Shown here one piece after another: positions 2,082 through 56,125 of a stretch of DNA of 64,000 nucleotides. A program made the position numbers and the translations under genes. The DNA comes from an uncultured Pseudomonadota bacterium (lineage in GTDB: Bacteria; Pseudomonadota; Alphaproteobacteria; RF32; CAG-239), in the NCBI GenBank assembly GCA_949295395.1, contig CASFLB010000002.1:423-64422 (forward strand). Reading direction: 5' to 3'. The notes under the pieces are model-generated. The model was not told the DNA's origin. It did not search any database and saw nothing but the letters and a program-made list of their open reading frames with translations. Numbering within the stretch: position 1 is the stretch's first letter; each line of letters begins with the position of its first letter.

Positions 2082-2450
2082 TTATGATTTTTCAATAAAC
2101 ATCTGCATTTTAAACAAAGATTTTTGATACCGATCATACAAAGTGGAGCGATGATGCTTAAAGCGAATGGACAAGAGCTTCCACGACACACCGCAAGAGC
2201 GTTTCCACACAAGTTTTGTTTCAAAGGCATTCAAACAAGAATACCATCCCAAAATTTCTTCCATTCGCGCCACTTCTTCAGGCGTTGGACGATAATAAGA
2301 CACAGGTTTTTGCGCAGCAAGTTCTTCAGCCGTATAGATTAAGCGAGGCCAAAAGGCACGACATTTTTGAAGCCTCACGGGAGGCAAGCAACGCATGATA
2401 TAAGCGGCAAACTCCAAATTTCTTCTTAACACACCCAAGCTTTTATGCAT
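2082..2450 (-). CDS. hypothetical protein (122 aa), second gene of a two-gene minus-strand operon
   Basis: ORF-track ORF. Strong SD (GAGGGAG) 7-8 nt upstream of the ATG at 2450, which is 12 nt downstream of the preceding gene. No recognisable family. Confidence 0.5.
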   Translation of the reverse strand: MHKSLGVLRRNLEFAAYIMRCLPPVRLQKCRAFWPRLIYTAEELAAQKPVSYYRPTPEEVARMEEILGWYSCLNAFETKLVWKRSCGVSWKLLSIRFKHHRSTLYDRYQKSLFKMQMFIEKS

Positions 2451-2462
2451 AACAATTCTCCC

Positions 2463-2900
2463 TCAACCACAATTGATAACATTTGATTTTGAAATTTTAG
2501 CAACCATTTTATCAATCTGCCGAAGAACATTTTGTGGCAAATTTTTTTTAAGCACGGCGGAATAAAAATGAGGCGTTCGAAGAACTTTAACCGCTACAGC
2601 GATAAGAGCTTTTCTCTGCCAAAAACGATAATCAAAACCGGTCAAATCGCACCACCGACGAAAATCCCGATAAGCCGAACTCCCCTGATCAAAAAAGAAA
2701 CGATAAGCCGCCAGTCGGCTGTATTTAAGATACACATCGCCCTTAACTTTTTTCCACGGAAAAACATCCATAACCACATCAAGTGTCAAATCATCAATAA
2801 CACGTTCCAAAATAGCATGTACAAGATTTAAATACGGACAACTATAAACCATAAAATTTCGGTTGTCTTCATCATCCGGTCCTTTTTTCTTTCGAGCCAT
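2463..2900 (-). CDS. hypothetical protein (145 aa from the MARKKKGP start)
   Basis: ORF-track ORF 2463..2924. The internal ATG at 2900 has a GAGGTGG SD 8 nt upstream; the extra N-terminal 8 codons are just the RBS region. No recognisable family. Divergent from the CI-like repressor. Confidence 0.5.
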   Translation of the reverse strand: MARKKKGPDDEDNRNFMVYSCPYLNLVHAILERVIDDLTLDVVMDVFPWKKVKGDVYLKYSRLAAYRFFFDQGSSAYRDFRRWCDLTGFDYRFWQRKALIAVAVKVLRTPHFYSAVLKKNLPQNVLRQIDKMVAKISKSNVINCG

Positions 2901-3168
2901 AGCAAACCACCTCAAATAAATCAATAACGATTTAGTCCAAGTCCAAAGTCAAAAAAGTCCGTGATAGTCAAAAAAAAATTATCCGATAGCTCTTTAAATT
3001 TTAAAAAGAAGGCATAAATAAAAAGAATAAAAAATTCAGATAACGAATAAAGCATATTCCGACATAGAATTTAAGTCAATGCCGGACGGCAACTTATCCT
3101 CAAAAAATTATTATTTGACAAGAAGATACAAACTAAAATCAAAAAAAAATAACAATGAGAAAAAGAAG

Positions 3169-3771
3169 ATGAACAACATCCGAAGCCTAAGAGAAAAACA
3201 ACATATATCAGCGAAAGAACTTGGACGAGCCATAGGAAAATCGCAGCCCACCATCAGCAAATGGGAAAACGCCCCACAATTGCGCTATGAGCAGGCTAAA
3301 AAAATCGCTGATTATTTCAAGGTTTCAATTTATGAAGTGACTGGCCAAAAAAACGAAGAATATCTCCAAGATATTGCCCCAACCATGGTGGCATTAGACA
3401 TCCTGTTTTTTCAAAACGGAGAGAAAAAAATTATCGGAAAACAAATAATACCAACCAAAATTTTACAAGAATATACCCTCACCGCTCCTCATAACATCAA
3501 AATCATCCGCATCAACCAAGAAGCCATGAAACCCACAATCAATATTAATGACATGATTTGGATTGATACCTCATACAAATTTCCCAACAGCGATGGTATT
3601 TATCTCATAAATATCGGCAACACCCCCATGCTAAAAAGAATACAGATAAAACCATTCGAAAATTCCGCCATTATAAAATCAGACAATCCGCAAGACGAAA
3701 CATTTATCTACCCAAACTATCATCAATTATCTGTTTTAGGAAAAGTAATTTTTCACCTCCAAAAGCTCTAA
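3169..3771 (+). CDS. CI/LexA-like repressor: N-terminal XRE-family HTH plus C-terminal S24 peptidase-like domain with the Ser nucleophile replaced by Ala
   Basis: HTH segment ISAKELGRAIGKSQPTISKWEN. The C-terminal segment aligns by eye to lambda CI/LexA: QEAMKPTI versus GNSM/GDSM; ...PMLKRIQ versus FKKL/VKRL (Lys retained); SVLGKVI versus SVVGKVI. Likely start MNNIRSLREK at 3169; the ORF track begins at 3079. Confidence 0.7.
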   Translation: MNNIRSLREKQHISAKELGRAIGKSQPTISKWENAPQLRYEQAKKIADYFKVSIYEVTGQKNEEYLQDIAPTMVALDILFFQNGEKKIIGKQIIPTKILQEYTLTAPHNIKIIRINQEAMKPTININDMIWIDTSYKFPNSDGIYLINIGNTPMLKRIQIKPFENSAIIKSDNPQDETFIYPNYHQLSVLGKVIFHLQKL

Positions 3772-3852
3772 AGCTGTGGATAAGGGAATTGATTTTAATT
3801 CATCGAATTGATACGATTATTCGTTTTCTGAATATTTAAAAAGGACGCGAAT

Positions 3853-4161
3853 ATGAATAAGATTTCGACGGACTACTTTTCTTTTCCTGCCGTAAGCAGC
3901 CTAAAAAAAGCTTATAAAGAATACATAAATAAACGCAACCCTTATATTGAACATTTTAAAAGCGACGATGAAGATGTGATTGTCGATGAAGAACAAAACA
4001 TCATCATTCCGCTTAGTTATGACGACAAACAACGCGAAGCTGAGATGGAACTTTTATACGACAACGACGGCTGGTTTGACGAGTTGGTACACGACAGCCC
4101 ACTCCGAGAAGATGTGACCGAGGTAATCCGAACCATCCTAAAAGATTTTACATGCCACTAA
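3853..4161 (+). CDS. hypothetical acidic protein (102 aa)
   Basis: ORF with an AAGGA SD 9 nt upstream, followed by a hairpin terminator. No recognisable family. Confidence 0.45.
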   Translation: MNKISTDYFSFPAVSSLKKAYKEYINKRNPYIEHFKSDDEDVIVDEEQNIIIPLSYDDKQREAEMELLYDNDGWFDELVHDSPLREDVTEVIRTILKDFTCH

Positions 4162-4165
4162 AAAA

Positions 4166-4196
4166 AATCAGCTCTTTAATGAGCTGATTTTTTTAG
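4166..4196. terminator. bidirectional rho-independent terminator between ORF102 (+) and atpC (-)
   Basis: Inverted repeat AATCAGCTC / GAGCTGATT with a 6-nt loop, flanked by an A-run and a T-run. Confidence 0.5.
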
Positions 4197-4200
4197 TTCC

Positions 4201-4569
4201 TTACTTTGAGGAAAGAACAATCTCATCGATTATCATTTTATAATAATTTTTAATGTCATCGCTTTGAGCCTTTTCAAAACGGCTTTTTGCCTCATCAAAC
4301 GTCATTTCTTCATAGGCATGAACCACTTCTGAAGAAATAGAACACACATCTTGCGCAATATCGGCCACACCACCTTGAACAAAAAAGCGTTTAACAACAC
4401 GGTTATCAGCATCAAGAGCCTTCACCTGACCATTGCGTAATAAAAGATATGTCGGCGCCCTGTCAGGCAAGACCGTCAAATCACCGGCCGCTGCCGGAAC
4501 AATAATTTTCTCGGCCTTAACCTCTGAAAACTGCGACACCGGACGCATAATCTTTAACACAACACTCAT
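4201..4569 (-). CDS. atpC: F0F1 ATP synthase subunit epsilon
   Basis: 122-aa ORF at the 3' end of the atp operon. Length and position fit the epsilon subunit. Confidence 0.85.
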   Translation of the reverse strand: MSVVLKIMRPVSQFSEVKAEKIIVPAAAGDLTVLPDRAPTYLLLRNGQVKALDADNRVVKRFFVQGGVADIAQDVCSISSEVVHAYEEMTFDEAKSRFEKAQSDDIKNYYKMIIDEIVLSSK

Positions 4570-4647: not shown

Positions 4648-6228
<1,581 letters not shown>

Positions 6229-54580: not shown

Positions 54581-55684
54581 GTGCAAAAGATGAACCGTCG
54601 CAATTTCGGCATTTACATTCATTGGCCCTTTTGCCGCAGTAAATGCCCTTATTGCGACTTTTTTTCGCAAGTCAAAAAAGACATTCCGCAAGAAAGAATC
54701 ATCGAAGACTATATCCAAGAGCTTGATTTCTACCATAACTTAACTTCAACAGAACAAGTCAGCAGCATTTTTTTCGGCGGCGGCACACCGTCGCTAATCA
54801 AACCCCAACTGATTGCACACTTAATTGAAGAAATCGGAAAAAAGTGGAGCTTGAAAAAAGACATTGAGATTTCACTTGAAGCCAACCCCAACACCGACAG
54901 CCCGACATTATTTTCCGACTTAAAATCAGCCGGAATCAATCGCTTGTCACTTGGCGTTCAAGCCCTAAACGATAAGGATTTGAAGTTTTTAGGCCGCACA
55001 CACAATGCCGCCCAAGCCCAAACCGCCATTGAGAAGGTTCTCAAAACTTTTGATAACCACTCCATGGACTTAATTTACGCCCGCCCCGAGCAAAAACTAG
55101 AGGCTTGGCAACAAGAACTTTCACAAGCCGTCGGATTCGGTTTTAAGCACTTATCGCTGTATCAATTAACAATTGAAGAAGGAACCAACTTTGCCAAACG
55201 CGGTATTAAGGCTTTGGAAGAAAACGCCGCCGCCGAAATGTACGATGTCACCACCGATTTTTTAGCTGAGCACGGCTACCCGCGTTACGAAGTTTCAAAC
55301 TTTGCTACACCACAATATCAGTGCCGCCACAATTTGCTTTATTGGCAAGGAGATAACTACATCGGCGTCGGGCAAGGCGCACACGGCCGAATAAAAACCA
55401 CGGAAAACAAAATTTACGCCACCACCTACCGCTGCCGGCTTGAAGAACTATCACCGGAAGAACGTGCCGAAGAACTATTGCTAATGGGCCTGCGCCTTGA
55501 TGAGGGAATCAACAAGAAAAATTTTAAGGCGCTTTGCGGAAAAGACTTTTCAAATATAACCGATTCGCAAAAAATCAAAGAGCTCGAAAAACTTGGTTTC
55601 ATACAAGACAACCAAAACACCGTCCGCCTAACAAAAACAGGCTTTCCGCTCATGAATCACATTTTATCTGAGATAATAACCTAA
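54581..55684 (+). CDS. hemW: radical SAM heme chaperone HemW (HemN-like, oxygen-independent coproporphyrinogen oxidase family)
   Basis: CxxxCxxC motif CRSKCPYCDF. 367 aa, the HemW-length class. Confidence 0.85.
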   Translation: MQKMNRRNFGIYIHWPFCRSKCPYCDFFSQVKKDIPQERIIEDYIQELDFYHNLTSTEQVSSIFFGGGTPSLIKPQLIAHLIEEIGKKWSLKKDIEISLEANPNTDSPTLFSDLKSAGINRLSLGVQALNDKDLKFLGRTHNAAQAQTAIEKVLKTFDNHSMDLIYARPEQKLEAWQQELSQAVGFGFKHLSLYQLTIEEGTNFAKRGIKALEENAAAEMYDVTTDFLAEHGYPRYEVSNFATPQYQCRHNLLYWQGDNYIGVGQGAHGRIKTTENKIYATTYRCRLEELSPEERAEELLLMGLRLDEGINKKNFKALCGKDFSNITDSQKIKELEKLGFIQDNQNTVRLTKTGFPLMNHILSEIIT

Positions 55685-55935
55685 CGCGCCGAATTAAAAT
55701 AGTCGACAGCATCAATAATCCTAGAAAGATCAGACGGAGAAACAGCCTCTTTACCGTCCAGAAGAGAATTCAGCTTGTCAAGTCCGAGCCCTGAGCGTTC
55801 CGCAATATCTTCTTTTGACAAAGCTGAAGAGGCAACCAATCGAGAAAGCTTTGTTCTCATTTGTCTTTGCAACACCGAAAGAACAAAAACCTCATCATCA
55901 CAATCTGAAAAAGAGCTGGAAGTAAAATCAGTCAT
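55681..55935 (-). CDS. small putative HTH DNA-binding protein
   Basis: The segment ALSKEDIAERSGLGLDKLNSLLDG resembles an XRE-type HTH. Start uncertain (55935 or 55977). Confidence 0.4.
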   Translation of the reverse strand: MTDFTSSSFSDCDDEVFVLSVLQRQMRTKLSRLVASSALSKEDIAERSGLGLDKLNSLLDGKEAVSPSDLSRIIDAVDYFNSAR

Positions 55936-56125
55936 AAAAAGTCCTCCAATCAAATCACTGAAAACTCTGCACACCACCTCAGAGCTGGAGGGAAATAGGC
56001 ACGTTCAAAAAATAGTCCGAGTCCACATTTCCACGATAAATTCGCAAAAACACAAAATGTGTCCCTAGAAGATAATCATGATTTTTTAAAAGACAAGAGA
56101 AAAGATAAAAATTTTGTATTTTCAA

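Follow-up and report, generated by a model that had tools for sequence, protein, structure and literature searches.

The prophage repressors of the Gifsy phages, 186/Tum and N15 are non-cleavable, CI-like proteins that are inactivated by antirepressors. Late-gene regulators such as lambda Q, or RinA, ArpU and LtrC of Gram-positive phages, are encoded just before the packaging genes, and some of them are sigma-like. In Caulobacter, RogA represses the two-gene gafYZ operon, whose product GafZ carries a sigma-like helix-turn-helix (HTH) (PMC11150451); in Rhodobacter, GafA controls the gene transfer agent (GTA) (PMC9638019). In this work we examined a four-gene module that borders lon in a 64-kb stretch of DNA from an uncultured alphaproteobacterium (contig CASFLB010000002.1, hereafter the window) and compared it with related loci and contigs, labelled L002 to L037. 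The module comprises a CI-like repressor gene, a divergent gene pair encoding a 145-aa protein and a 122-aa member of Pfam family DUF6362, and a gene for an acidic protein of 102 aa. We propose, with a probability of about 0.5, that it is a phage-derived transcriptional switch in which the repressor gates an activator pair, and that it is now a permanent part of the chromosome, linked to lon.

Among known systems, RogA and gafYZ offer the nearest analogy in logic, and the window's locus resembles them in layout. Both systems are alphaproteobacterial, and in both a repressor would act on the core promoter of a two-gene operon for small proteins; palindromes predicted over the -10 element fit such a role here. 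Further points of likeness are a sigma-like HTH (putative in our case) in one of the two proteins and an element that is domesticated and not mobile. GafYZ activates a phage-like structural cluster, which may be unlinked, and distant homologues of our pair lie at the head of such a cluster. Sequence relatedness, in contrast, was not detectable: DUF6456, the Pfam family of GafA homologues, gave no match at E≤10 in 11 DUF6362 members or in 14 members of the 145-aa family, and because neither protein matches this profile we do not file the pair with the GafYZ family. The systems also differ in that no GTA cluster was found in the window and that the module is tied to lon.

A repressor and a tightly coupled gene pair next to lon

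Four open reading frames (ORFs) of 122, 145, 200 and 102 aa lie at the positions given in an earlier note on this DNA. The repressor gene (3169-3771, + strand, 200 aa) is followed by the gene for the 102-aa protein (3853-4161, +). Across a divergent spacer of 268 bp (2901-3168; GC about 0.31-0.35), the genes for the 145-aa protein (2463-2900, -) and the DUF6362 protein (2082-2450, -) are transcribed the opposite way, separated by 12 nt and each preceded by a GAGG-type Shine-Dalgarno (SD) sequence. Downstream of this pair and in the same orientation comes lon, whose 5' part (1-1943, -) is cut by the window edge. The AT-rich spacer, the coupling of the pair with good SD sequences, the acidic nature of the 102-aa protein (isoelectric point 4.5) and a terminator 3' of its gene had all been described in the earlier note and are borne out here, as is the reading of the repressor as an HTH plus S24 protein with alanine in place of the catalytic serine and the lysine retained. 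Its statement that the pair has no recognisable family applies to the 145-aa protein only, and extends to the 102-aa protein: neither has a family in Pfam, PHROGs, NCBIfam or PADLOC. The 122-aa protein matches DUF6362 (PF19889) with 72.5 bits (cut-off 31; E 3.8e-20) over profile positions 2-96 of 98, as well as phrog_6836. The cargo is thus not wholly undescribed, one half being DUF6362 and the other an unnamed partner.

The DUF6362 profile was matched by all 11 diverse members tested. The 122-aa protein is basic (isoelectric point 9.9), and its AlphaFold2 model (predicted local distance difference test, pLDDT, of 88) is helical, with a C-terminal four-helix, HTH-like unit. Region 4 of the extracytoplasmic function (ECF) sigma factor L, CnrH and DosR headed the Foldseek matches of this model, all at E>1 (best TMt 0.60 over 74 columns), and hhalign set the putative HTH in register with region 4.2 of Escherichia coli RpoE at a probability of 0.2%. 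The 145-aa protein is also basic and modelled as all-helical (pLDDT 79); neither protein has enzymatic motifs. At E≤0.001 Foldseek retrieved nothing from PDB or BFVD, an unnamed phage protein at E 0.059 being the best viral match, and comparing profiles of the two families with the sequences of solved structures yielded nothing meaningful. The partner family is very small: a set of 1.84 billion proteins contains 16 representatives of it at 50% identity, and a word-indexed search with a profile gave 15 clusters. In every one of the 29 loci examined the 145-aa gene is directly followed by a DUF6362 gene. Scans of IMG/VR with the profiles of both families found no relatives, and a literature search found no paper mentioning DUF6362.

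Homologous pairs head phage-like late operons

Distant members of the 145-aa family (25-38% identity) occupy a second type of locus (L005-L010, L019-L021 and L029-L031). In these terminase-linked loci a divergent HTH_3 repressor of 131-136 aa, lacking the S24 domain, precedes the pair, and the pair is followed by genes for the large terminase subunit (TerL) and a Cpn10-like protein and then by portal, major head, tail and virion genes. The pair lies directly upstream of TerL in L009 and close to it in L005, L010 and L019. On its other side the repressor gene is adjoined by genes for a MacB-type ABC transporter, a class-I tRNA synthetase and TrkH; three diverged genomes share this gene order, and none has an integrase there. 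The phage-like clusters (L005:9483-20387, L009:9480-20369, L010:9206-13291 and L019:1-10429) include a gene for a 516-aa virion/amidase-like protein, and their internal gene order is rearranged between genomes; they may be either GTA-like elements passed on vertically or prophages whose insertion site is conserved.

Recognisable phages encode DUF6362 without the 145-aa partner, where replication genes give way to packaging genes (the early/late boundary). It is the last gene before the genome end in Rhodobacter phage RcMamaDuck, at whose other end lie genes for a ParB-like nuclease, the small terminase subunit (TerS) and TerL. In Ralstonia phage YO164_3, whose record is unannotated and whose neighbouring genes were identified by eye from translations, it follows a large primase-like ORF and a RuvC-like one and precedes ORFs resembling ParB-methylase fusions. 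The prophage in L033 runs from an integrase to DUF6362, ParB-methylase, TerS, TerL and portal. Since DUF6362 holds this boundary position, and since two of the three phages (RcMamaDuck and L033) have a separate TerS, the data point to a late-gene regulator rather than a small terminase. Like lambda Q, RinA, ArpU and LtrC, the proteins of the pair are small and encoded at the early/late junction, immediately upstream of terminase genes; unlike them, they are two obligately paired proteins associated with a tandem pentamer array, and no sequence or significant fold similarity to those regulators was found.

The repressor lacks the catalytic serine

The repressor scores above the Pfam thresholds for HTH_3 (E 3.5e-13) and Peptidase_S24 (44.8 bits, cut-off 23.3; E 1.1e-11) and also matches phrog_4. 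Its C-terminal domain was aligned with those of LexA and lambda CI. The INQEAM segment aligns with VSGMSM and VEGNSM, which sets QEAM opposite GMSM and GNSM and places an alanine at the nucleophile position; the lysine of MLKRI aligns with K156 of LexA and K192 of CI, so that the general base is retained. Within the species, all 12 variants have alanine at the nucleophile position, and so do three sister species. In the stretch, weakly aligned, that corresponds to the Ala-Gly cleavage site, the window has Asn-Gly and L002 Lys-Gly.

Beyond the window clade and L002-L004, which have the Ala/Lys combination, the dyad takes other forms. Serine and lysine are both present in L011 and L015, serine is combined with arginine in L025, and in L028 the nucleophile position is threonine and the lysine position lies beyond the end of the sequence. 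Outside the dyad the S24 domain is well conserved among orthologues. The variation of the dyad argues that self-cleavage, or catalysis in general, is not what selection maintains; most likely the S24 domain now serves for dimerisation or for binding a partner. Judging by its sequence, the inducing signal in the window clade cannot be RecA-stimulated self-cleavage.

LexA and lambda CI thus share with the window repressor an N-terminal XRE-type HTH and a C-terminal S24 fold, a position divergent from the controlled genes, and paired palindromes (candidate operators here) overlapping the target promoter. Differences, apart from those in the dyad (Ala for Ser in the window, Thr in L028, Arg for Lys in L025) and at the cleavage-site position, are that the window repressor lies outside any prophage and that its gene is fixed beside lon. 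The resemblance to the repressors of the Gifsy phages, 186/Tum and N15 lies in the inability to self-cleave, so that induction must come through a partner protein. Here, in contrast to those systems, there is neither a LexA-type box nor a recognisable antirepressor family, and the sole antirepressor candidate is the unique acidic 102-aa protein encoded just 3' of the repressor. When the repressor was compared with the sequences of solved structures, the HTH of PezA was the only match.

In the loci compared, the 102-aa family is present in lon-linked modules only. The C-terminal half of the protein is conserved, and its last residues differ by lineage (TCH, SCH, CRQ, YKQ or YKH). LarA (DUF1150) is a small alphaproteobacterial activator of Lon (PMC10665427). 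The 102-aa protein resembles it in size (about 90-100 aa), in taxonomic setting, in being encoded near lon and, in some lineages, in a terminal histidine like that of the LarA degron. The likeness goes no further: the identity with LarA was rejected, as the protein has no DUF1150 match (no Pfam match at E≤1) and a C-terminus that varies among lineages. The 102-aa protein, acting as antirepressor, and Lon itself are no more than candidates for the inducing input.

The module is conserved beside lon

The 145-aa protein was searched for by a scan of one genome per species followed by exact-protein look-ups. The scan found it in three further metagenome-assembled genomes of uncultured Alphaproteobacteria, with the gene order of the window: atpC, 103 aa, 200 aa, the divergent spacer, 143 aa, 123 aa and lon. 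The look-ups added L025-L027, L011-L014, L015-L018 and L028. Altogether the module recurs, with all four reading frames intact, in at least five diverged lineages (the window, L002-L004, L025, L011-L018 and L028). The DUF6362 gene is followed by lon in the same orientation in every lon-linked lineage; the far flank is atpC in the window and a CNNM/CorC gene in L011-L014 and L015-L018. Because lon is always downstream and the other flank varies, the constant neighbour is lon and not the lon-atpC interval. In L025-L027 an additional gene for a 175-aa protein of no known family (L025:846-1373) lies between atpC and the 102-aa gene.

All four genes have ratios of nonsynonymous to synonymous substitution rates (dN/dS) of 0.05-0.25, both between the window and other lineages and within the L011/L015 clade, with dS saturated; the 145-aa gene departs from this range at the longest distance, where the estimates are saturated. 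Amino-acid identity is 67-81% for the module and 93-99% for atpA, atpD, atpG and lon. In comparisons of the window with L002-L004, the segment 2082-4569 (module and atpC, 67-81% identity) has dS above about 0.7, and the neighbouring genes have values of 0.15-0.56 (atpA, atpD and atpG, 93-99% identity) and 0.8 (lon, 96%). This divergence may mark either a fast-evolving island or a past allelic replacement. We set aside horizontal replacement as the cause of the module's higher dS because the estimates are saturated, the genes are short and a 12-kb region is collinear at 88% nucleotide identity.

Searches by tblastn with the structural proteins of the relatives gave no match in the window or in L002-L004. 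No integrase occurs among the called genes around the module in L011-L018 and L025; att sites were not searched. The absence of structural genes and integrase, together with the selection and the synteny, supports domestication and does not support a decaying or currently mobile prophage. What we see looks like a fixed, functional chromosomal module rather than a dead or mobile prophage.

These data bear on several proposals of the earlier note. Its suggestion of phage ancestry gains from the phrog_4 repressor, from phrog_6836 and from the homologous pairs that head terminase-portal-capsid clusters. Of the terms it offered, "domesticated" suits the evidence; "decayed" does not agree with the dN/dS values and the synteny in at least five lineages, and a mobile element is not supported, given the tblastn result and the lack of an integrase in the Pfam-annotated related loci. 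It had also named conservation of the same gene set beside lon across free-living relatives, with known housekeeping roles, as evidence to the contrary; the set is indeed kept there in relatives, and no housekeeping role is known for it. The proposed comparison of the lon-to-atp neighbourhood showed a constant linkage to lon and, in two lineages, the replacement of the atpC flank by a CNNM/CorC gene. As for a toxin or defence pair, this option finds no PADLOC matches, and both proteins are basic and helical, DUF6362 being HTH-like.

Candidate promoters and operators in the divergent spacer

A candidate sigma-70 promoter for the pair operon (TTGACT-17-TATGCT; 3051-3079, -) was found by promoter scanning. 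Both clades keep its TTGACT, and the L028 counterpart reads TTGACT-18-TAAAAT. On the other strand, a TTGACA (3115-3120, +) is, by its conservation, the candidate -35 of the repressor promoter, the -10 being unclear in the window. The sequence TATTTGACAA is invariant across the two clades and present in L028, and the two candidate promoters stand back-to-back in all lon-linked lineages.

A search of the spacer for operator-like repeats, proposed in the earlier note, turned up two palindromes: candidate operators O1 (GAATAAAAAATTC, 3025-3037) and O2 (GAATAAAGCATATTC, 3045-3059), the latter enclosing the predicted -10 of the pair promoter. The O2-type GAATA-N5-TATTC palindrome occurs once in the 64-kb window; palindromes of this type lie at the homologous place in L002-L004 and L011-L018 and, on reading the sequence, in L028 and in degenerate form in L025. 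Start-to-start spacing of O1 and O2 is 22 bp in every lineage where both are intact. Terminase-linked loci have the same layout with different palindromes (ATAAC-N5-GTTAT) and a different repressor type, and it is this co-variation that supports reading the palindromes as operators. The candidate operators and promoter have kept their positions while the surrounding intergenic sequence diverged.

Before the 102-aa gene, a promoter-like TTGATA-17-AATATT (3808-3836, +) encloses an inverted repeat, TATTCGTTTTCTGAATA (3818-3834). This TATTC-N7/8-GAATA arrangement, the O2 pentamers in everted order, is kept in both clades and could be a third operator or a weak attenuator. On inspection by eye the control region showed neither a CtrA box (TTAA-N7-TTAA) nor a LexA box of the alphaproteobacterial type (GTTC-N7-GTTC), and GANTC sites were likewise absent. 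The DnaA box at 3775-3783, although perfect, was dropped because it is conserved only in the close window clade and L025 and is absent from L011/L015.

Pentamer arrays accompany the pair

The leader of the 145-aa gene contains a GGACT/GACT array (2934-2969, -), which begins after the predicted transcription start and lies 30-70 nt ahead of the ATG. Copies number 5-6 with a 7-nt period in L011/L015 (TRF) and four in L028, the overall range in lon-linked loci being 3-6. In the terminase-linked loci, 5-6 copies of TTTTGGAAC(G/A) with a 10-nt period stand directly after DUF6362 and before the late genes, and a conserved GGGACA-N12-TATGCT-N11-TACAATAGCG comes next. In L009 the complete cassette recurs before a relocated late transcription unit. 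Its two copies (L009:10793-10900 and L009:12584-12690; 5 x TTTTGGAAC, GGGACA, TATGCT/TATGTT and TACAATAGCG) precede different late units; gene order in L009 differs from that in L005, and the repeats may have mediated the rearrangement.

Arrays of at least three copies of GGACT or GGAAC occur nowhere else in the 385 kb examined. A scan of IMG/VR for the GGAAC array returned only unrelated contigs without the pair. Two of these viral contigs (L036:1400-1560 and L037:1230-1330) have GGAAC clusters in both orientations and no DUF6362 pair, so that further phage regulators may also make use of GGAAC arrays. Elsewhere in the window thioredoxin is followed by an ORF (55681-55935, -) of 84 aa, counted from its ATG, whose sequence includes an XRE-like HTH, and a GGACT pair (GGACTCGGACT, 56014-56024) stands about 80 nt upstream of it. 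As a further target site this pair was discounted, the match being compatible with chance.

The flanks of the module

No terminator or stable structure was found in the spacer between DUF6362 and lon. This spacer holds a candidate sigma-32-type promoter for lon (CTTG-N18-CTTATAT; 1976-2004, -), conserved in the window clade and L025, with CTACACA at that place in L011/L015; going by the alphaproteobacterial RpoH consensus, we presume that it is a heat-shock promoter. Between DUF6362 and lon there is also an element, TGTGGATTAA (2059-2068, -), that matches a DnaA box at eight of nine positions and is found in all lon-linked lineages; it is coding (VVD-stop) in L011/L015/L028 and non-coding in the window clade, and it sits just upstream of the lon promoter region. 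The Lon N-terminus, MAAKKEIHPVLPLRDIVVYP, is the same in L004, the orthologue in L011 has the LON_substr_bdg, AAA and Lon_C domains, and Lon identity is 96% to L002-L004 and 87% to L011/L015.

At the other end, folding revealed a hairpin with flanking A- and T-runs (4162-4197; -19.6 kcal/mol, z = -6.4), a convincing candidate for a bidirectional terminator common to the 102-aa gene and to atpC (4201-4569, -), the neighbour beyond it. Further on, ATP synthase beta (4648-6207, -; 519 aa) is extended at its N-terminus, ahead of the usual start, by about 45 residues rich in Lys, Ala and Thr; the protein has the same length in L002-L004.

Discussion

In the switch that we propose, repressor dimers, held together by an S24 domain that would serve for dimerisation or partner binding only, would occupy the two palindromes 22 bp apart, over the -10 and start region, and keep the pair operon off. 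The pair would form a two-part transcription activator, DUF6362 contributing a sigma-region-4-like HTH and the 145-aa protein acting as its obligate helical partner. Before its capture, within a phage-like element, the activator would have turned on packaging, head and tail genes, its DNA target presumably being the tandem pentamer array (five to six GGAAC copies before the late genes, three to six GGACT copies before the pair). In lon-linked loci the activated unit would be the pair itself, with transcription running on into lon, which would additionally keep its own heat-shock-type promoter. Derepression should self-amplify because the array sits before the pair itself, and the activated unit should include lon because no terminator follows the pair. 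We hold this output, self-amplification with read-through into lon, only tentatively and at somewhat less than an even chance. Alternatively or in addition, the pair may act in trans on unlinked phage-derived, GTA-like genes, an output that we regard as rather unlikely.

Several points weigh against this interpretation. The promoters and operators are consensus matches and hence predicted sites, and we infer DNA binding for all proteins of the module. The resemblance of the DUF6362 model to sigma region 4 is not statistically supported, given the Foldseek E values above 1 and the 0.2% hhalign probability, and the model of the 145-aa protein found no significant or informative fold match in Foldseek. 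Equating the GGACT with the GGAAC arrays is an analogy, since the former lie upstream of the pair and the latter downstream. As lon has its own promoter, read-through may be irrelevant. Finally, the 7-nt period of the GGACT array in L011/L015 suits an oligomer bound to leader RNA better than a protein on one face of the DNA.

This last point leads to a post-transcriptional device, in which an RNA-binding protein that forms oligomers, comparable to TRAP, HutP or CsrA, would bind the GGACU leader repeats and gate translation or stability of the pair message, the pair itself not acting at the array. That the repeats are 3' of the predicted transcription start and end about 25-35 nt before the ATG agrees with this idea; yet we identified no protein as a candidate for binding this RNA, the start of transcription is a prediction, and in the terminase-linked loci the arrays repeat every 10 nt and precede promoter-like sequences. 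We consider it improbable. Slightly more improbable still is a role in packaging recognition, with a TerS-like pair and arrays serving as pac- or cosB-type sites, of which the lon-linked module would be a leftover; through it, chromosomal DNA could be packaged into capsids whose genes lie elsewhere. The proximity of the pair to TerL and the adjoining 10-bp phased arrays would suit such a role, and PHROGs recognised no TerS in the terminase-linked clusters. HTH_23, a fold that occurs in some small terminases, matches weakly in 4 of the 11 DUF6362 members. The pair itself, however, matched no TerS family in Pfam or PHROGs. RcMamaDuck and L033 have DUF6362 plus a separate TerS, and the lon-linked pair is under purifying selection with no TerL nearby. 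The duplicated L009 array, with its promoter-like tail (TATGCT-N11-TACAATAGCG) before a different unit each time, fits promoters better than a single pac site.

The remaining explanations find even less room. A repressor-controlled toxin or anti-phage defence pair would account for the divergent repressor and the tightly coupled pair of unknowns, an XRE regulator beside small genes being a common layout of toxin-antitoxin and defence loci, and the HTH part of the repressor shows weak PADLOC matches to defence-associated regulators such as RmrA and capH. Against this, neither protein of the pair, nor the 102-aa protein, matches any PADLOC model at E≤1; both pair proteins are basic, helical and devoid of enzymatic motifs; and DUF6362 holds a regulatory position in phages, with homologous pairs heading structural operons. 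These features make a toxin or defence function very improbable. We assign the lowest likelihood of all to an inert relic of prophage immunity kept by chance beside lon. Such a relic would explain the lack of structural and integration genes nearby, the eroded S24 dyad and the faster evolution of the module than of its neighbours, but not the four intact frames in at least five lineages, their low dN/dS even with dS saturated, or the cis elements kept amid diverging intergenic sequence.

Beyond the repressor-gated switch as such lies a bolder extension, which we think unlikely on present evidence. DUF6362 and the 145-aa protein would constitute an undescribed two-component activator that reads pentamer arrays and originally served a phage or GTA-like late operon. 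Uncultured, probably gut, Alphaproteobacteria would have captured the whole switch and placed lon under self-amplifying on/off control, with the 102-aa protein or Lon closing the loop. What is new in the data is the unnamed partner family, the association of an array with the pair, and a complete phage-type switch that is strictly linked to lon.

Should the conservative part alone hold, the locus would be one more domesticated phage regulatory cassette. If the fuller reading is true, DUF6362 and a new partner family would acquire a function, as late-gene or GTA-type activators, with a concrete DNA target, and the terminase-linked relatives might represent a new kind of phage-like element that uncultured bacteria inherit vertically. 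It would also mean that a complete phage genetic switch has been put to use in the control of a core protease. In Alphaproteobacteria the regulation of stress and of the cell cycle converges on Lon, and an extra bistable input to it would be of real physiological interest.

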